The position numbers and the translations under genes are program-made. Positions 2,735-57,659 of a DNA stretch of 64,000 bases are shown piece after piece. The notes beneath the pieces were generated by a model that saw only the letters and a program-made list of their open reading frames with translations, made no database searches and was not told the origin of the DNA. Origin of the DNA: Escherichia coli (GTDB lineage Bacteria; Pseudomonadota; Gammaproteobacteria; Enterobacterales; Enterobacteriaceae); the NCBI RefSeq assembly GCF_003334405.1, contig NZ_QOWM01000018.1; one strand, 5' to 3'. Every line of letters begins with the position of its first letter. The stretch's first letter is position 1.

Positions 2735-3559
2735 ATGAGACTGAATACGACCGGTATTGCGGCCCGAATGATGCTCTCGCTGGACAAAAAAGCAATCGGC
2801 GAAAAACTCATCAACGGTCGTCAGATAAACCCGACACCACTGCAGGTCCGTTACCCACAAGGGGTAAGAGAAGTTCTGGGGATAATGAGCGAACAATTAG
2901 CCATATCCACCGCTGATTTAACCCGAATCCTGCTTGAGGATGCTCTTCATAATATGTTTATGCCTGCGGATAACACCACAGGAAACATAATAAGCAGAAT
3001 TGAATACATCATGCTGTCGCATGATATAAATGCGCCATTACTGGCAACATTGCTGTCGCCATGGAATATCCGCTCCACGGTTATACAGGACCCGGCCAGA
3101 CTTGCAGACTATCTTTCAGCTGACGCTCTCGAACATCTTGCTGAATGTTTTAATCTCAATCCGGACTGGCTGAATGGCCATGAAAACTATCCGATAGCGT
3201 TGTCCGGTGAATGGCCAGATACTGCTGATAATTTCAGAATGCTTATTAATGATAGCAGCAACACTGAAGTTATTTTCTGGCATAGTTTCCCCTTCGCAGG
3301 AAACACGAAAAGAGAATATTGCGGGGTAATATTGAGACAGAAAAAAGAAATAAATGGCTCTGTAATATATCCAGCACTATCATTATCACCAACACTTCTG
3401 AACGATGAAAAAAGAAAATGGTTAACTGAATATACAACCAGGCAGAATACAACAATGTCTTTGCGACGTGTTACGTTGAGACCTGGCCTTGCCGGGAACC
3501 TTATTACAGGGCAAATACTACCTGTTAGCTTATTTAATACGTCTTTATTACCCTGGTAA
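2735..3559 (+). CDS. traE: conjugal transfer protein (first gene of tra operon)
   Basis: 274-aa ORF, GGAGG RBS 5 nt upstream; name from position relative to rci/sog (synteny inference). Confidence 0.6.
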   Translation: MRLNTTGIAARMMLSLDKKAIGEKLINGRQINPTPLQVRYPQGVREVLGIMSEQLAISTADLTRILLEDALHNMFMPADNTTGNIISRIEYIMLSHDINAPLLATLLSPWNIRSTVIQDPARLADYLSADALEHLAECFNLNPDWLNGHENYPIALSGEWPDTADNFRMLINDSSNTEVIFWHSFPFAGNTKREYCGVILRQKKEINGSVIYPALSLSPTLLNDEKRKWLTEYTTRQNTTMSLRRVTLRPGLAGNLITGQILPVSLFNTSLLPW

Positions 3560-28448: not shown

Positions 28449-28544
28449 TCAGTCGATAAGTTCCCGGATCAGTTCCAGAACAGCAATCAGCGCGTTTGCA
28501 ACGGCAACTACTGCCCTGAGAACGATGATTAACAGATTAATCAT
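28449..28544 (-). CDS. candidate small hydrophobic peptide (type I toxin-like), 31 aa MINLLIIVLRAVVAVANALIAVLELIRELID
   Basis: ATG 28544 with GGAG 6 nt upstream; single predicted helix; complementary sRNA-like element nearby (see findings). Confidence 0.3.
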   Translation of the reverse strand: MINLLIIVLRAVVAVANALIAVLELIRELID

Positions 28545-28802
28545 CCGCTTCTCCATCACTGGAGGAAATCACCGTTGCTTACTCTTACATTGCCTGTCAC
28601 AACGGCACTTTCAGTGTTAGTTGAAAAGAGACTTCCTCCTGCCAGAGCACTGAACACAGCACCACCTGTTTGTTCAGCCAGGACTTAAAATCTTGCATCC
28701 ATAGTCCCGATGGATATCACGGCAGAAGTGTCGCCAGACAGAGCTAACCTGCGGATTATAAGGATGGTTGCTATCAAATGAACAGCTCGCTATTATAAGA
28801 AC

Positions 28803-37470: not shown

Positions 37471-37509
37471 TTCAGGCTCCTTACGGGGTGTCGGGGCGAA
37501 GCCCTGACC

Positions 37510-37570
37510 AGATGGCAATTGTAATAGCGTCGCGTGTGACGGTATTACAATTGCACATCCTGTCCCGTTT
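37510..37570 (+). promoter_or_regulatory. oriT: origin of transfer oriT: inverted repeat 37516-37526/37543-37553 and nick-region motif CACATCCTGT at 37554-37563
   Basis: CAATTGTAATA-N16-TATTACAATTG followed by ATCCTG, directly upstream of nikA. Confidence 0.7.
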
Positions 37571-37703
37571 TTCAGGCCATTATAGCCTGTTATTTTTGTG
37601 CATCATAGTCTTATGCAGACGGCAGAGGCAGGGCGCAGCCCTGCCAGGAGGCAGTTTTTGATGATAAAATCAGACTTCAACATGAAACGGAGAGAAAGTG
37701 CCA

Positions 37704-41879: not shown

Positions 41880-42375
41880 CCGGAGGGGCGAAAGCCCCTT
41901 CTGCCGTCCACTTCTTCGGGGTTTCTCCCCGCAGTGGACCTTTCCGATGGGGCGTCCGTCACCACGTCACGGGGCAGCTGTCCGGGGGCGGACGCAAAAT
42001 TTTTTGCCGGGTTTATGGCTAAAAATTTTGTGGACGGTATATCTTCCCCTGGACTGCTGAAACGGGATGTGGTTACTCCAGCCCCCGGAAAGTCCACAGC
42101 GGGAAACAGGCCGCAGGGGTGGCGGCGGAAGGGTTGACTGCGCCATCAGGCGCAGTTGCCTTACACACCGTCAGGTGTGCAGGGAGCGCCGTTTCCGGCG
42201 CGACAGGGGCGGCGCGACCGGAACGGTCGCTGCAAGCCTGGTTTTTCAGACATCGGACCGTAGCGGCAGCCCGAAACCGCGCCAGCGGGTTCGGCGGAGA
42301 CTGGCGGGTGCGCCAGCAGCTGCCTGTCGGAGTCGGGCCTGACGACCGGATGCCGCCAGGCAGCCGGGAGCCGAA
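41880..42375. promoter_or_regulatory. structured repeat family 1, copy B (Frpo/ssi-like single-strand promoter candidate)
   Basis: ~500 bp, near-identical to 48225-48728; many internal hairpins (CTGCGCCATCAGGCGCAG, CACACCGTCAGGTGTG). Confidence 0.6.
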
Positions 42376-42557
42376 GGTGTCCCCGCCTCCGGAAATCAGA
42401 ACAACAGAAACGACATAACAGAAAAATGCCTCACACCATGACGGGCAGGAAGGGCAGCGCCGCAGGCGCGGCCCTCCTGCATTTCAGGCAGGCGTAAGCC
42501 TGCCAGGGTTTTCCGGCGGCCTGGCAGGCCATACCCCCGCCGGAGCGGGGGAGTAAA

Positions 42558-43058: not shown

Positions 43059-43085
43059 TCCCGAATCCTCCATAGTCACATGTTC

Positions 43086-43396
43086 TGCGACACCGGGCGG
43101 TGCCGTGCCTCCATAAAAGCCGGGCGATAAGGCGGGGATGCACAGGGCGCAAGGGAAGCCGCAGCCTGACGCACACGGCTGGCGGGAGTTGGAGGGTGAG
43201 ACCGCGAAATCTGAGCGGGTGAACGACCGGAAAATCACGGCAGACGGGAAGGAGGGACCGGGTGACCGCAGCGGCGAAGCGTACCCTTGCATCCCTGCCA
43301 GCCCGGCTAAGATGGAGGCACGGCACAGCCCGCACACGATACGGCGGCCACAGAGCTGAAAACCCACAAGGCCATGCCCCGCATGGCCGGGTAAAA
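43086..43396. repeat. structured repeat family 2, copy 1 (~310 bp, identical to 50040-50349)
   Basis: direct comparison of the two stretches; immediately 5' of ardA. Confidence 0.7.
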
Positions 43397-43520
43397 GCGG
43401 AGCCGCCGGCGACTTCCTTATTCCGGCGAGTGCAGAGGACACGCCGCATGACCTCCAGACCACCCCTGATATGAAACGATCATGATCGGCGTGTCCCTGC
43501 GTAAAATATACATGCCTGGT

Positions 43521-48224: not shown

Positions 48225-48728
48225 CAGAGGAGCGAAAGCTCCTCCTGCCGTCCACTTCACAGGGGTTTCTCCCCGCAGTGGACCTTTCCGATGGGGGCCC
48301 GTTTACCGCCTCACGGGACAGCTGTCCGGGGGCGGACGCAAAATTTTTTGCCGGGTTCATGGCTAAAAATTTTGTGGCCGGTGCATCTCACCCTGGACAG
48401 ATGGAACGGGAGGGGGTTACGTCTGCCCCCCGGAAAGGTCCACAGCGGGGAAACAGGCCGCAGAGGTGGCGGCAGGAGGGAAGACTGCTGCGCCATCAGG
48501 CGCAGTTTCCTCACACACCGTCAGGTGTGCAGGGAGCGCAGGTTACGGCGCGACAGAGGCGGCGCGACCGGAACGGTCGCTGCAAGCCCGGGTTTTCACG
48601 CATCGGACCGTAGCGACAGCCCGAAACCGCGCCAGCGGGTTCGGCGGAGACTGGCGGGTGCGCAAGCAGCTGCCTGTCGGAGTCGGGCCTGACGACCGGA
48701 TGCCGCCAGGCAGCCGGGAGCCGAAGTG
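48225..48728. promoter_or_regulatory. structured repeat family 1, copy C (Frpo/ssi-like single-strand promoter candidate) 5' of ssb
   Basis: ~500 bp near-identical to copy B. Confidence 0.6.
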
Positions 48729-50011: not shown

Positions 50012-50039
50012 GATGTTTTCCTCCGTTGTTCACATATTC

Positions 50040-50349
50040 CGCGACACCGGGCGGTGCCGTGCCTCCATAAAAGCCGGGCGATAAGGCGGGGATGCACAGG
50101 GCGCAAGGGAAGCCGCAGCCTGACGCACACGGCTGGCGGGAGTTGGAGGGTGAGACCGCGAAATCTGAGCGGGTGAACGACCGGAAAATCACGGCAGACG
50201 GGAAGGAGGGACCGGGTGACCGCAGCGGCGAAGCGTACCCTTGCATCCCTGCCAGCCCGGCTAAGATGGAGGCACGGCACAGCCCGCACACGATACGGCG
50301 GCCACAGAGCTGAAAACCCACAAGGCCATGCCCCGCATGGCCGGGTAAA
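50040..50349. repeat. structured repeat family 2, copy 2 (~310 bp, identical to 43086-43396)
   Basis: immediately 5' of the KlcA-like gene. Confidence 0.7.
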
Positions 50350-50428
50350 GCGGAGCCGGCGGCGACTTCCTTTGTGCTCTGTCCGGGGACCGGCAGGAAA
50401 AAGGCGGGAATTTACCCCGCCAGTGTCA

Positions 50429-52991: not shown

Positions 52992-53918
52992 TCATCCACC
53001 GTAATGCGCCACCTTGTCGACTATCCACGCAGGTCCGGTGACTTCCGGCAGCTCATCGTCATCTGTCGGGGAAGACCATTCCAGTTCCCCCCAGAGCACA
53101 TCAACGAGCTCTCCGCGCTCATACAACTGCCAGCCACAGAAATTGCAGCCCTGTTCGGCGTACCAGTGCTCCAGCGTGCAGCCGAAACGGCGGCTTAATG
53201 CTGCAACAACGTCGCTTTCCGGCTGACACCACGGCGTGTCGAAATCCACCTGAATGCAGTTGTCTCCCTGACTACTGATATTCAGGTCATACCCACAAGG
53301 CCACTTCACGCCATACCGTTCTGTATACCAGTGATATGCAGAAGGAACACCGTTCAGAACACCACCATTAAAGCCATTCACTTCAACATCCAGGCGGGTC
53401 GGCAGAACCGTCAGCAGGTCAAACGGCATGGTTTTTTCCGGCACTACGTTGTCACACAGACGGTTCCACCACACCGATACATCCTCGCTACCCCAGATGT
53501 CACACCAGTCACCTCTTTTTGCGGTGAAATGCACAGTGATGGTTTCCCTGACATCATCCGGTAATCCTTCCCAGCGACGCTGTCCAGTACCGCTCTGCAG
53601 CCAGAGCTCATGCAGCATCAGGCAGTTTTGCTCATCCAGCAGTACACCGTTCTGCAGGTGTGTCAGCCAGCGGGTGAACGCGATATTTTCCGTCGATACA
53701 GCACCACGTCCGGCAGCCGTCACTCCGGGGCACTGTTCAGAGCGGATATTTTCAGTGATCTGCAGAAGTCCGGCACTTCCGGCCAGAAACAGCTGAATAC
53801 CTTCATTTGTGGCGCGGCGATAAAGCGGTGTAACTGCACCGCTGGCCAGTCGTTTAATCTCAGCGATCTGTGCCGGTTCACCAGAAAAATACATACGATT
53901 CGAGCACCAGTTTGGCAT
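52992..53918 (-). CDS. hypothetical Cys/Trp-rich leading-region protein
   Basis: 308 aa from ATG 53918 (MPNWCSNRMYFSG), AGGAGA RBS. Confidence 0.55.
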   Translation of the reverse strand: MPNWCSNRMYFSGEPAQIAEIKRLASGAVTPLYRRATNEGIQLFLAGSAGLLQITENIRSEQCPGVTAAGRGAVSTENIAFTRWLTHLQNGVLLDEQNCLMLHELWLQSGTGQRRWEGLPDDVRETITVHFTAKRGDWCDIWGSEDVSVWWNRLCDNVVPEKTMPFDLLTVLPTRLDVEVNGFNGGVLNGVPSAYHWYTERYGVKWPCGYDLNISSQGDNCIQVDFDTPWCQPESDVVAALSRRFGCTLEHWYAEQGCNFCGWQLYERGELVDVLWGELEWSSPTDDDELPEVTGPAWIVDKVAHYGG

Positions 53919-54242
53919 GGGAATTCTCCTCTCACATGCGGCCTCCATCAGGCCGTGCCGCACCTGTTACCGGGCGACCGCATACGAATGCAGGTGCGGC
54001 CCCGAAGCCGCAGCGCGTGGAGGAGGAACGACGAAACGTGACCGGGTGAGGAGGCCGGCGACAGCGACACACTTGCATCGGATGCAGCCCGGTTAACGTG
54101 CCGGCACGGCCTGGGTAACCAGGTATTTTGTCCACAGAACCGTGCACAAAATGCTGTGGATAAGCTGGACACAGCAGCCCACAGCAGGCATACAGCCACA
54201 CACTCAGAGAATTGAGCGTTTTTTAGTCACAACAATGACATT

Positions 54243-54290
54243 TGACTGTGTGCGGATTCAGTTATTAGAATACTGTATATACATACAGCA
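54243..54290 (+). promoter_or_regulatory. imp promoter (-35 TTGACT, -10 TAGAAT) with LexA/SOS box TACTGTATATACATACAGCA at 54271-54290
   Basis: CTGT-N8-ACAG palindrome 22 bp upstream of impC start. Confidence 0.75.
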
Positions 54291-54311
54291 AAAGAAAAGG
54301 GAGATGAGAAC

Positions 54312-54560
54312 ATGATCCGCATTGAAATTCTTTTCGACCGCCAGAGCACAAAAAACCTCAAATCAGGCACACTTCAGGCGCTACAGAATGAAATCGAACA
54401 ACGTCTGAAACCACACTACCCGGAAATCTGGCTGCGTATAGACCAGGGCAGCGCCCCGTCTGTATCTGTCACAGGAGCCCGCAACGACAAGGATAAAGAA
54501 CGTATCCTGTCTCTGCTGGAAGAAATCTGGCAGGACGACAGCTGGCTGCCTGCAGCATGA
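54312..54560 (+). CDS. impC: DinI-family SOS regulator ImpC
   Basis: 82 aa, MIRIEILFDRQ ... DDSWLP, DinI-like pattern. Confidence 0.75.
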   Translation: MIRIEILFDRQSTKNLKSGTLQALQNEIEQRLKPHYPEIWLRIDQGSAPSVSVTGARNDKDKERILSLLEEIWQDDSWLPAA

Positions 54561-54994
54561 GTACCGTTTATCACCGTCCGGCTGACCCTTCAGGCGATGA
54601 CAGTTACGTGCGACCGTTGTTTGCCGATCGTTGCCAGGCCGGTTTTCCTTCGCCTGCCACTGATTATGCTGAGCAGGAACTGGATCTGAACAGCTATTGC
54701 ATCAGCAGACCTGCAGCCACCTTCTTTCTGCGCGCCAGCGGTGAATCGATGAACCAGGCTGGCGTGCAGAATGGTGATCTGCTGGTAGTGGACAGGGCCG
54801 AAAAACCACAACACGGGGACATCGTTATCGCTGAGATCGACGGTGAGTTCACCGTCAAACGACTGCTGTTGCGCCCACGCCCGGCACTGGAGCCGGTTTC
54901 AGACAGCCCGGAGTTCCGCACACTGTATCCGGAAAACATCTGTATTTTTGGTGTTGTCACTCACGTGATACACAGGACGCGGGAGTTACGCTGA
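54557..54994 (+). CDS. impA: UmuD-like translesion synthesis subunit ImpA
   Basis: 145 aa, LexA/UmuD-type S24 peptidase motifs (ASGESM, GDLLVVDRA). Confidence 0.8.
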   Translation: MSTVYHRPADPSGDDSYVRPLFADRCQAGFPSPATDYAEQELDLNSYCISRPAATFFLRASGESMNQAGVQNGDLLVVDRAEKPQHGDIVIAEIDGEFTVKRLLLRPRPALEPVSDSPEFRTLYPENICIFGVVTHVIHRTRELR

Positions 54995-56268
54995 TGTTTG
55001 CACTGGCTGATATCAACAGTTTCTACGCCTCATGTGAAAAAGTTTTCCGCCCGGACCTTCGCAACGAACCGGTCATCGTACTCAGCAATAACGATGGCTG
55101 TGTGATCGCGCGCAGCCCGGAGGCAAAAGCCCTTGGCATCAGAATGGGGCAGCCCTGGTTTCAGGTGAGACAAATGCGCCTGGAGAAGAAAATACATGTA
55201 TTTTCCAGCAATTATGCGCTGTACCACAGCATGAGCCAACGGGTTATGGCTGTTCTGGAGTCGCTTTCTCCCGCAGTTGAGCCCTACTCAATTGATGAAA
55301 TGTTCATTGATTTGCGGGGGATAAATCATTGCATCTCTCCGGAGTTTTTTGGTCATCAGCTCAGGGAACAGGTAAAGAGCTGGACAGGACTCACCATGGG
55401 GGTGGGCATTGCGCCTACAAAAACGCTGGCTAAAAGTGCACAGTGGGCAACAAAGCAATGGCCACAGTTTTCCGGAGTGGTCGCGCTGACGGCAGAAAAC
55501 CGTAATCGGATCTTGAAGCTACTGGGGCTGCAGCCAGTTGGTGAGGTCTGGGGAGTAGGACGCAGACTGACGGAAAAGCTGAATGCGCTGGGTATTAACA
55601 CAGCACTGCAGCTGGCGCAGGCTAACACGGCATTCATCCGGAAAAACTTCAGCGTCATTCTTGAGCGTACGGTACGCGAACTCAACGGCGAGTCCTGCAT
55701 ATCCCTGGAAGAAGCACCACCGGCAAAACAGCAGATTGTCTGTAGTCGCAGTTTTGGTGAACGAATCACAGACAAAGATGCCATGCACCAGGCTGTTGTT
55801 CAGTATGCAGAGCGGGCCGCAGAGAAACTACGTGGGGAGCGTCAGTATTGCCGGCAGGTGACGACATTTGTACGGACATCACCCTTTGCAGTAAAAGAAC
55901 CCTGTTACAGCAATGCCGCTGTGGAAAAGCTTCCATTGCCCACACAGGACAGCCGGGACATTATTGCCGCCGCATGCAGAGCCTTAAACCATGTCTGGCG
56001 TGAAGGGTACCGCTATATGAAGGCAGGTGTCATGCTGGCTGATTTCACACCATCGGGTATAGCGCAGCCGGGATTATTTGATGAAATCCAGCCCCGTAAA
56101 AACAGTGAAAAGTTAATGAAAACACTCGATGAACTGAACCAGTCGGGAAAAGGGAAAGTGTGGTTTGCGGGGCGAGGAACCGCCCCTGAATGGCAAATGA
56201 AACGGGAAATGTTGAGTCAGTGTTATACAACTAAATGGCGAGATATTCCCCTGGCCAGGCTGGGTTAG
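54994..56268 (+). CDS. impB: UmuC-like Y-family DNA polymerase ImpB
   Basis: 424 aa, MFALADINSFYASCE N-terminus typical of UmuC/DinB. Confidence 0.85.
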   Translation: MFALADINSFYASCEKVFRPDLRNEPVIVLSNNDGCVIARSPEAKALGIRMGQPWFQVRQMRLEKKIHVFSSNYALYHSMSQRVMAVLESLSPAVEPYSIDEMFIDLRGINHCISPEFFGHQLREQVKSWTGLTMGVGIAPTKTLAKSAQWATKQWPQFSGVVALTAENRNRILKLLGLQPVGEVWGVGRRLTEKLNALGINTALQLAQANTAFIRKNFSVILERTVRELNGESCISLEEAPPAKQQIVCSRSFGERITDKDAMHQAVVQYAERAAEKLRGERQYCRQVTTFVRTSPFAVKEPCYSNAAVEKLPLPTQDSRDIIAAACRALNHVWREGYRYMKAGVMLADFTPSGIAQPGLFDEIQPRKNSEKLMKTLDELNQSGKGKVWFAGRGTAPEWQMKREMLSQCYTTKWRDIPLARLG

Positions 56269-56269
56269 T

Positions 56270-56686
56270 TCAGTCATCTCCGAACATATTTTCAGCGTTT
56301 CTTCTGGTCTGGTCTTCACCGTCATTTCTCGACAGACTCTGCTCTGTAAGAGGAGTACTGCAATCCACAGACGTATGGAGACCAGATTGTTTTTCCAGTA
56401 ATTCAAGCAATTTCTTTTCAACCGAAAAAGCACCTGGTATTACGCTGGAAATCACCTTATTAATATCATCCAGAGTCGTATTTTCTGTCAGTAACTCCGA
56501 TATCAGCAAAGGAAGACGTTTATCTATAGCTGCAAACGCCGCACCAGTAACTAACATCGCGCGCATGAAACGTCCCCGCTCCTTCAGTTTTTCATTTGCA
56601 ATGAGCTCATCTGCTATCTTATCTCCTGTCCGTTCATCCGGGAAAAGTTCAAATGAGCAGCGTCTGGATTTATTTTCATCACTCAT
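56270..56686 (-). CDS. partition adaptor (ParR/StbB-like) downstream of actin-like ATPase
   Basis: 138 aa, operon partner of ParM-like gene. Confidence 0.5.
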   Translation of the reverse strand: MSDENKSRRCSFELFPDERTGDKIADELIANEKLKERGRFMRAMLVTGAAFAAIDKRLPLLISELLTENTTLDDINKVISSVIPGAFSVEKKLLELLEKQSGLHTSVDCSTPLTEQSLSRNDGEDQTRRNAENMFGDD

Positions 56687-57659
56687 TAGTCACACCACCT
56701 TTCATTTTTATCATTCCCATGACTAAATCAAACTGCGGGGATGAGCTCAGATAAAAGCGCTCATCAGGAACCTTAGTCAGGTTCTTCACAGCCTCGGCCA
56801 CAATTTCAGCCCCACCACCAACACACATTACATGTGTATAGTCGGTGAAACGGCTGATGACATCATTAACTCGTTTAATAAGCAACTTCTGCCGTTCATT
56901 GATAACATTAATGATAGACTCACGCTGTTCAGCATTATAAATGCGACGGGAAAGGTAGTCAGGTTCATTACGGTGCACAATGATATTGTCAGCCTGGAAT
57001 GAGCTCACTCTTGTATTAGCATGTACAGCCATCTGTTCCTTAACCCCGGATGTAATCAGGGACACGCCGATATTCGGATCACACCAGGTTTTTGTAATCC
57101 CTGTCATTTTGCTACGAACATGCGACACATCAAGAGTTGTACCACCGAGATCTACGATCAAAAGGGATTCATCATCCTCAAGCCCCGCAAGAACACTGAA
57201 ACCAGCGGGAATACTTTCAGGAAGAACGGAAACACTGCGAATAACAAATGCATCACTCCCCTGCACCCGTACTTCACGCATCACATTTTTTTTCTTTCTT
57301 TCAATGTTTTGCTTATTTTTCTGATTGTTGGCGTCAAGGTATTCAGAGATCGGCAATGTGACGATGACATCAACAGGCTGCGCTTTCAGGCCGGTCTGCT
57401 GTAGCGCATGCTGAATGGCCACAACATTCACATCACTGTACTGATAGCGTGTTTCAGTCGTTACGACAGCATCAGCACTTAATGGATCAAATGAAAACTT
57501 CTCGCCGTCGATCTCGTAATTAGCCGGAGCAGCATCATCCAGTAAACTAAAAGACCATTCCGGTTTAAAGCTGTTAGGGCTGATTAACGTTTTCACGTCA
57601 CCATCCTCCAACCAGGCAAGTTTAATGTTGGTAGAACCATCATCAATAAAGATTTTCAT
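56679..57659 (-). CDS. actin-like partition ATPase (ParM/StbA family)
   Basis: 326 aa from ATG 57659 (MKIFIDDGSTNIKLAW), actin-fold phosphate motifs IDLGGTTLD. Confidence 0.75.
   Translation of the reverse strand: MKIFIDDGSTNIKLAWLEDGDVKTLISPNSFKPEWSFSLLDDAAPANYEIDGEKFSFDPLSADAVVTTETRYQYSDVNVVAIQHALQQTGLKAQPVDVIVTLPISEYLDANNQKNKQNIERKKKNVMREVRVQGSDAFVIRSVSVLPESIPAGFSVLAGLEDDESLLIVDLGGTTLDVSHVRSKMTGITKTWCDPNIGVSLITSGVKEQMAVHANTRVSSFQADNIIVHRNEPDYLSRRIYNAEQRESIINVINERQKLLIKRVNDVISRFTDYTHVMCVGGGAEIVAEAVKNLTKVPDERFYLSSSPQFDLVMGMIKMKGGVTNE

Follow-up and report, generated by a model that had tools for sequence, protein, structure and literature searches.

The impCAB operon of an IncI1 plasmid: a DNA polymerase V-type system with a near-consensus LexA operator at the distal end of the leading region

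Is the palindrome in front of the impCAB genes of this IncI1 plasmid a LexA operator, and what does the orientation of these genes, opposite to that of most of the leading region, mean for their expression when the plasmid is transferred? Error-prone polymerases carried by plasmids are important for stress-induced mutagenesis and for the evolution of antibiotic resistance. We analysed a stretch of 64,000 nucleotides (the window) and conclude with high confidence that impCAB is a plasmid-borne translesion and mutagenesis system of the DNA polymerase V type under direct LexA (SOS) control. The operon is long known and ordinary, and it had been read correctly by the first-pass annotation, whose three reading frames were recovered as follows:

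54312-54560, + strand: impC, 82 aa, DinI-like; annotated as 'DinI-like family protein' in ColIb-P9 and R64
54557-54994, + strand: impA, 145 aa, UmuD-like self-cleaving subunit; its ATG overlaps the impC stop codon (ATGA)
54994-56268, + strand: impB, 424 aa, UmuC-like Y-family polymerase; its ATG overlaps the impA stop codon (TGATG)
54298-54303, + strand: Shine-Dalgarno sequence AGGGAG, 8 nt 5' of the impC ATG, by direct sequence reading

The imp operon of TP110 (IncI1) was reportedly sequenced by Lodwick, Owen and Strike in 1990, and Runyen-Janecky is said to have dealt with the Shigella pWR100-type impCAB in 1999. By sequence comparison, positions 54100-56300 are 100% identical to ColIb-P9 and R64, and the same stretch was found in thousands of plasmids. 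In several otherwise identical plasmids it is interrupted by an IS insertion; impB is intact here. Outside imp, ColIb-P9 and the window plasmid share about 98% identity, and the window plasmid lacks the TnpB gene between ardA and psiA. No terminator-like site was found on the + strand 3' of impB up to 58600, and an Rfam search of 53000-57000 gave a single sub-threshold chance match.

The gene identities proposed earlier held at the protein level. ImpC scored 41 bits over residues 2-78 against the NCBIfam DinI model, and because this is below the equivalog cut-off of 111 bits the protein is called DinI-like and not DinI. It also matched the DinI structure (PDB 1GHH) over residues 3-79 with an E-value of 6.8e-6, and a DinI-like activity of ImpC is suggested by these profile matches. 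ImpA and ImpB were both above the cut-offs of their subfamilies, with 143 bits for ImpA against the UmuD model NF007621 (cut-off 110) and 795 bits for ImpB against the UmuC model NF002955 (cut-off 431), the latter covering model positions 1-422 of 422. In the alignment, Ala28-Gly29, Ser64 and Lys101 of ImpA are in register with the cleavage site and the Ser-Lys dyad of E. coli UmuD, which we take to be Cys24-Gly25, Ser60 and Lys97. ImpB carries the catalytic acidic residues Asp6 and Asp101-Glu102, and its structural matches in the PDB are Y-family polymerases.

Upstream of impC, the following elements were located:

54242-54247, + strand: -35 hexamer TTGACT, by consensus scan; its TTG aligns with the TTG of diverged umu-like operons
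54266-54271, + strand: -10 hexamer TAGAAT, by consensus scan, after an 18-bp spacer
54271-54290, no strand assigned: predicted LexA operator (SOS box) TACTGTATATACATACAGCA, with the core CTGT-N8-ACAG at 54273-54288
54244-54263, no strand assigned: a further, weak LexA-like site, GACTGTGTGCGGATTCAGTT, which covers the -35 and spacer, 8.5 bits

The predicted sigma-70 promoter agrees with the consensus at 10 of 12 positions and is the sole promoter-like site on the + strand in 53900-56500. Both hexamers are those given by the first-pass annotation, but the spacer is 18 bp and not 17 bp. This spacer and the TAGAAT hexamer are close to the optimum without reaching it, and the promoter is predicted from consensus matches; from the -10 geometry, transcription would start near 54278. 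The LexA box was found where it had been placed, with 2 mismatches to the 20-base consensus TACTGTATATATATACAGTA, and its 16-bp palindrome CTGTATATACATACAG (54273-54288) has the form CTGT-N8-ACAG with a TA-rich centre. It had been described as overlapping the -10, which is true of its first base only (T54271, the last base of the -10), the 16-bp core beginning 3' of the hexamer. The distance to the impC ATG at 54312 is 21 nt, and not 22 bp as proposed. Relative to the predicted start, the box spans mainly about -7 to +13.

The bare core CTGT-N8-ACAG occurred once in the window against 0.84 expected, a chance-level count, and it was dropped as evidence in favour of a search with the 20-mer and a weight matrix; the significance of the operator therefore rests on the full 20-mer. 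In 100 dinucleotide shuffles of the window, no site came within 3 mismatches of the LexA consensus. In the matrix, which was built from 20 E. coli operators (lowest-scoring genuine operator 12.1 bits), TACTGTATATACATACAGCA scored 27.2 bits, level with the best genuine operators, whereas the next best site of the window reached 15.5 bits and 50 shuffles gave a maximum of 17.6 and a mean best score of 12.5 bits. The relaxed pattern CTGNNTN7CAG, with 31 matches against 8.55 expected, was rejected as a sign of many LexA sites; the matches are mostly G+C-rich and intragenic, and the probable cause of their excess is a high frequency of CTG and CAG codons, a feature lost in dinucleotide shuffling.

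The box was also compared with eight plasmid umuD-like operons of 63-68% protein identity to ImpA. In seven of them a strong LexA box is located 12-19 nt 5' of the first ATG, and at the eighth locus, which is without a box, an IS481 insertion replaces the upstream region. The invariant columns of the upstream alignment were CTGTA..T..A.ACAG and the start codon. The same 20-mer has been tabulated 5' of impCAB on the IncI1 plasmid pTF2, at position -21 with a heterology index (HI) of 1.60 (PMC12211044, 2025, Table 1), and in a constitutive-SOS lexA mutant carrying pTF2 proteomics showed a 21-fold increase of ImpC, a 9-fold increase of ImpA and a 2-fold increase of ImpB (PMC12211044). Expression along the operon thus appears uneven, as ImpB was up only 2-fold compared to 21-fold for ImpC. 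The experimental support for LexA control is that from this sister IncI1 plasmid with its identical operator, and a footprint or gel shift of LexA on the imp operator was not found in the accessible literature. Over-expression of impCAB causes a severe growth defect (PMC10286972), and tight repression is thus understandable. For the TP110 and Shigella impCAB, PMC12211044 and PMC10286972 cite UV protection and induced mutagenesis. Taken together, the near-consensus operator on the promoter, its conservation in diverged operons and the pTF2 proteomics bear out the LexA control of impCAB proposed by the first-pass annotation.

Two other readings of the upstream region were considered. That the palindrome is fortuitous or has a structural origin, such as a small hairpin or the remnant of a terminator, with imp being constitutive or under a plasmid factor instead of LexA, draws on the chance expectation of the minimal core and is in our judgement hardly credible, since the full 20-mer is without a counterpart in the shuffles, scores as high as the best operators and occupies the same place in diverged operons, and the published induction of ImpC and ImpA in the lexA mutant contradicts it. 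It is unlikely that repression relies, as in the lexA, recN or colicin promoters, on the strong box (54271-54290) in cooperation with a further LexA site over the -35 (54244-54263). A 1-nt variant of GACTGTGTGCGGATTCAGTT is tabulated as a second site at -48 with an HI of 13.49 (PMC12211044), and the site in the window fits CTG-N10-CAG and overlaps the -35 hexamer. However, its 8.5 bits are below the mean best score of the shuffles and below all of the genuine operators of the matrix, its centre is G+C-rich (GTGCGGAT) and not TA-rich, the relaxed pattern that it fits is common in the window, and it shows no conservation among the diverged operons. It was rejected as a second operator and is probably not functional.

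The preferred reading, a single strong LexA operator on the imp promoter, leads to the following model. In an undamaged cell a LexA dimer would sit on 54271-54290, and RNA polymerase would be blocked, since the operator reaches from the final base of the -10 across the predicted start. Upon DNA damage, RecA filaments would lead to self-cleavage of LexA and to a single imp transcript, on which impC, impA and impB would be translationally coupled via their overlapping stop and start codons. ImpA would cleave itself at Ala28-Gly29 via the Ser64-Lys101 dyad, aided by RecA filaments, two ImpA' would assemble with ImpB as the Y-family catalytic subunit, and ImpC would modulate the RecA filaments; we infer both the processing of ImpA and this role of ImpC.

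For the behaviour of imp during conjugation, two further features are needed:

37554-37567, + strand: oriT nick region CACATCCTG/TCCCG, exact motif match
53949-54113, + strand, that is, the transferred strand: large hairpin with 27-nt outer arms, back-to-back with the imp promoter

The nick within the motif presumably lies at about 37563, as in the R64 literature, and imp is 16.7 kb from it. The location of the nick motif on the + strand identifies this strand as the transferred one, and as the coding sequence of imp is on the + strand too, the entering strand carries this coding sequence and not the template. The orientation of imp opposite to the leading-region genes, noted by the first-pass annotation, was recovered, with 20 of the 23 genes between oriT and impC on the - strand. 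Its further claim, that imp would be transcribed only after synthesis of the complementary strand, follows from strand polarity and fits the general rule of PMC11541004 (Nature 2024), in which umuDC homologues often bound leading-region islands and 90.3% have the same orientation as imp. In the model, the + strand would enter the recipient 5' first from the nick, and imp would be silent while the plasmid is single-stranded because the entering strand lacks its template. Once the duplex has formed, LexA of the recipient could occupy the imp operator, and PsiB, an early leading-region product, would hold the SOS response down in E. coli; this timing after transfer would follow from strand logic. 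R64drd was transferred without SOS induction in E. coli, which the authors credit to its psiB, and cloned PsiB lowered SOS induction; deletion of psiB from R64drd was not achieved, so there was no direct test (PMC2958807).

The imp promoter itself is unstructured, and the sole large hairpin (folding energy -49.4 kcal/mol, z -3.9) faces the divergent operon on the - strand. It is a candidate single-strand promoter for this DUF1281-methylase operon, its position corresponding to that of a 'class 3' ssDNA promoter upstream of M.EcoGIX (PMC12672017). Neither gene-level imp expression nor the sequence of the hairpin was found in the main text of that early-conjugation RNA-seq paper (PMC12672017). 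A large hairpin of its own is also present upstream of samA in pSLT.

It is possible, though doubtful, that LexA control is real and the orientation has no timing function, imp being a cargo module inserted at the outer margin of the leading region. Whichever way it faced, a double-stranded promoter would be inactive on an entering single strand, and that of imp is an ordinary duplex sigma-70 promoter without a hairpin of its own. The six induced operons end at the M.EcoGIX homologue (PMC12672017), and the six genes just past imp (stbB-like, parM-like, parA-like, integrase and others) fall outside these operons although they, too, are encoded on the - strand; early expression is therefore not decided by orientation alone. 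The upstream intergenic DNA of imp gave no sequence match to that of the diverged umu-like operons except for the operator; a conserved module of hairpin plus operator therefore cannot be claimed from the sequence. The orientation shared by 90.3% of leading-region umuDC homologues, often at an island boundary (PMC11541004), is in contrast hard to explain by chance insertion, and in an inverted imp read-through from the adjacent single-strand promoter could express the toxic operon early. A stronger reading goes the other way, with the hairpin promoter firing toward oriT and the LexA-gated imp at the distal edge forming a functional timing device and not a mere module boundary. Imp would then become expressible exactly at duplex formation and would be induced only if PsiB cannot curb the SOS response of the recipient, as in hosts with a foreign RecA, and a mutagenic polymerase would be supplied during a difficult establishment. 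As impB is without a terminator, SOS-induced read-through would in this case enter the convergent parM-like partition operon in the antisense direction. We regard such a device as improbable.

The LexA-controlled impCAB operon described here adds nothing new to biology, the operon sequence dating from 1990, the orientation rule from 2024, and the operator and proteomics from 2025. Its use is that of a landmark: in the window it shows where the leading-region anti-defence island ends distally, and combined with the oriT nick motif it identifies the transferred strand.

Compared with the impCAB operons of the IncI1 plasmids TP110, ColIb-P9 and R64, the operon in the window has the same gene set and order, and nothing of substance differs. 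With the chromosomal umuDC, mucAB of pKM101 and samAB of pSLT it shares a LexA operator abutting the -10, a UmuD-like subunit with Gly at the cleavage site and a Ser-Lys dyad, and a UmuC-like Y-family polymerase, with the two genes overlapping. It differs in the cleavage site, which is Ala-Gly in ImpA and Cys-Gly in UmuD, and in the extra DinI-like first gene impC, which is absent from most umuDC-type operons and was present in only one of the eight diverged loci (L003). The leading-region genes with single-stranded promoters of the Frpo/ssi type (ssb, psiB, ardA, M.EcoGIX) are neighbours of imp, which adjoins the last such operon and a large hairpin of the transferred strand. However, imp is not a member of this single-strand-transcribed class, because the transferred strand is not its template and no promoter-mimicking hairpin faces it; imp is on the other strand, with a conventional duplex promoter and a LexA operator.

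Based on a pattern search we found a single CTGT-N8-ACAG in the whole 64-kb window, within the 20-mer TACTGTATATACATACAGCA at 54271-54290, which is where the first-pass annotation had placed an SOS box. The minimal core alone proves nothing, since it is expected 0.84 times by chance in the window. The 20-mer differs from the LexA consensus TACTGTATATATATACAGTA at two positions, and no site within three mismatches of this consensus was detected in 100 dinucleotide shuffles. Using a LexA weight matrix built on 20 literature operators from E. coli and plasmids, which serves for ranking only, TACTGTATATACATACAGCA scored 27.2 bits, on par with the best genuine operators. The second-best site of the window scored 15.5 bits, and the top scores of 50 shuffled windows had a mean of 12.5 and a maximum of 17.6. 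Recently, the identical 20-mer was reported for impCAB of the IncI1 plasmid pTF2, at position -21 and with a heterology index (HI) of 1.60 (PMC12211044, Microbiol Spectr 2025, Table 1), and in a constitutive-SOS lexA mutant ImpC was up 21-fold, ImpA 9-fold and ImpB 2-fold (PMC12211044).

A consensus scan of 53900-56500 gave one + strand promoter-like site, matching at 10 of 12 positions, in front of the three imp genes:

54242-54247, + strand, -35 hexamer TTGACT
54266-54271, + strand, -10 hexamer TAGAAT, after a spacer of 18 bp
8 nt 5' of the impC ATG, Shine-Dalgarno sequence AGGGAG
54312-54560, + strand, impC, 82 aa, matching the DinI model over about its whole length
54557-54994, + strand, impA, 145 aa, UmuD subfamily model at 143 bits (cut-off 110)
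54994-56268, + strand, impB, 424 aa, UmuC subfamily model end to end at 795 bits (cut-off 431)

These positions correct the earlier spacing, which had the spacer at 17 bp and the box 22 bp before impC; the gap from the end of the box to the ATG at 54312 is 21 nt. The claimed overlap of the box with the -10 does exist, but it amounts to one shared base, the first of the 20-mer, and the operator chiefly covers about -7 to +13 relative to the predicted start.

All three open reading frames lie on the + strand and overlap, impC and impA by ATGA and impA and impB by TGATG, which suggests translational coupling. ImpC scored 41 bits against the DinI model, below the 111-bit equivalog cut-off, and matched the solved DinI structure 1GHH with an E value of 6.8e-6; it is best described as DinI-like. 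Ala28-Gly29 of ImpA aligned with the cleavage site Cys24-Gly25 of E. coli UmuD, and Ser64 and Lys101 with the catalytic Ser60 and Lys97 (established UmuD numbering). ImpB has Asp6 and Asp101-Glu102. The operon is intact in the window, and several otherwise identical plasmids carry an IS element (ISKox3, ISL3 family) inserted within the equivalent of 54100-56300. Over-expressed impCAB was shown to impair growth severely, and strong purifying selection acts on impC and impA among I-complex plasmids (PMC10286972, PLoS Genet 2023). This paper and PMC12211044 both cite the original imp work on TP110 and Shigella.

Nearly throughout the I-complex, the promoter region shows at least 95% identity, so that conservation there says little, and diverged loci were chosen instead. 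We compared eight plasmid loci with a UmuD-like protein 63-68% identical to ImpA. The plasmids are of IncF and other types and belong to Klebsiella, Salmonella and Citrobacter; one of them, an IncFIB/IncFII plasmid of 93.8 kb from S. Typhimurium, was taken by its size and host to be a pSLT-type plasmid with samAB. In seven of the loci, a strong LexA box (19.8-28.6 bits) ended 12-19 nt 5' of the first start codon; in the eighth an IS481 element replaces the upstream region. The only invariant columns of the upstream alignment were CTGTA..T..A.ACAG, one T of the -35 and the start codon. Most of the diverged loci have a -35 TTG and an A/T-rich -10 immediately 5' of the box, and the remaining intergenic DNA had no detectable similarity between imp and the diverged umu-like operons. 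This is the pattern that would be expected of a functional operator.

Other LexA-like sites were also considered. The pTF2 impCAB entry in Table 1 of PMC12211044 includes a second site at -48 (HI 13.49), which is, save one base, the reverse complement of 54244-54263, a weak CTG-N10-CAG site overlying the imp -35. It scored 8.5 bits, i.e. chance level, and no conservation of it was seen in the alignment of diverged umu-like operons; a second LexA site here is therefore unsupported. Intragenic sites at 55586-55605 within impB (15.1 bits) and at 3424-3443 within a 274-aa open reading frame (15.5 bits) are likely due to chance, as their scores are within the range of shuffled sequence. The relaxed pattern CTGNNTN7CAG occurred 31 times in the window, with 8.55 expected from dinucleotide shuffles; most matches are G+C-rich and intragenic, and the excess probably reflects codon usage (CTG, CAG) and not LexA sites, making this pattern a poor LexA screen. 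Separately, a moderate site of 13.7 bits, ACCTGTTTGTTCAGCCAGGA, was observed at 28664-28683, about 105 nt upstream of a small hydrophobic open reading frame:

28449-28559, - strand, 36 aa

The same 20-mer was entered for the DinQ-like toxin gene dqlB with an HI of 11.64 (PMC12211044), and this is a possible second SOS-controlled locus of the window.

An R64-type oriT with the nick region CACATCCTG followed by TCCCG lies on the + strand at 37554-37567, the nick presumably falling between the two as in R64. The complete R64/ColIb-type oriT core (37485-37575, + strand, beside nikA), with its 17-bp inverted repeat, determines the direction of transfer for the entire window. Since the strand nicked at oriT is transferred 5' first, rightward of about 37563 it is the + strand that is transferred. 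This agrees with the placement of nikA and nikB left of oriT and with the gene orientation: of the 23 annotated genes between oriT and impC, 20 lie on the - strand and have the + strand as template, among them ardA, psiA, psiB, ssb, a klcA/ardB-like gene and an M.EcoGIX-like methylase gene. impCAB, 16.7 kb from the nick, is on the + strand, and is thus indeed transcribed oppositely to the leading-region genes. The strand that enters carries the imp genes in the sense orientation and offers no template for their mRNA, hence the claim that imp is transcribed only after complementary-strand synthesis is correct as a matter of logic. Our literature search found no direct measurement of early post-transfer imp transcripts.

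LexA bound to the promoter-borne operator would repress impCAB, and upon DNA damage RecA-stimulated self-cleavage of LexA would free it, derepression and toxicity both being documented for sister plasmids. ImpA would be processed to ImpA', which would pair with ImpB in a translesion polymerase of the polymerase V type. ImpC may modulate RecA filaments. After conjugation the operon would be silent while single-stranded, and LexA could bind once the duplex forms. Transfer of R64drd (psiB+) did not induce SOS in E. coli but did so in Vibrio cholerae; the former was credited to PsiB from over-expression of the cloned gene, deletion of psiB from R64drd not having been achieved (PMC2958807).

Directly upstream of the imp promoter, back-to-back with it, a large hairpin can form on the transferred (+) strand at 53949-54113 (27-nt outer arms, -49.4 kcal/mol, z-score -3.9). 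It is also just upstream of a divergent - strand operon encoding a DUF1281 protein, a small protein, the M.EcoGIX-like methylase and another small protein. Its right arm contains:

54073-54078, TTGCAT
54093-54099, weak -10-like TAACGT or TTAACG

These putative elements would be placed for leftward transcription from near the hairpin base. In the IncI1 plasmid pESBL six single-strand promoters were identified (PMC12672017, NAR 2025), including one hairpin set apart as 'class 3', which lies 5' of M.EcoGIX; judged by its fitting position, the hairpin at 53949-54113 is probably the same. Two leading-region segments, 43066-43419 and 50019-50372 (96.6% identical), precede ardA and the klcA/ardB-like antirestriction gene, a placement that matches the two similar single-strand promoter hairpins published as 'class 2'. 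A second repeated pair, 41883-42376 and 48227-48726, is about 90% identical. Between the large hairpin and the imp promoter, short inverted repeats on CCACAG/CTGTGG cluster at 54125-54200 and give two small hairpins when folded as a single strand. A different large hairpin (-43 kcal/mol) was seen at 211-380 of the S. Typhimurium plasmid locus, some 240 nt 5' of the LexA box that precedes the umuD-like gene (samA, should the plasmid be of the pSLT type), a hint of hairpins recurring next to umu-like operons in the absence of sequence homology.

A single base separates the stop codon of impB (56266-56268) from that of a convergently oriented stbB-like gene (56270-56272). Downstream of impB no terminator-like site was found on the + strand before 58600, so that imp transcription, once induced, may continue in antisense into the parM-like partition operon. 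Homologues of umuCD are often the terminating boundary of leading-region anti-defence islands, and the orientation argument has been published before in general form (PMC11541004, Nature 2024). That boundary position and orientation have been selected as a device for timing, with SOS-induced transcription reading on into the partition genes, we consider quite improbable.

The region 54100-56300 is 100% identical to the IncI1 reference plasmids ColIb-P9 (NC_002122.1) and R64 (NC_005014.1), where the imp genes are annotated as DinI-like, umuD and Y-family polymerase, and is matched by at least 5000 plasmid records. Across the whole window the identity to ColIb-P9 is about 98%, and ColIb-P9 has a TnpB gene between ardA and psiA that the window lacks. 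The first-pass observation is thus confirmed with minor corrections and its interpretation supported; it correctly identifies a known system, both LexA control and orientation having been published before.
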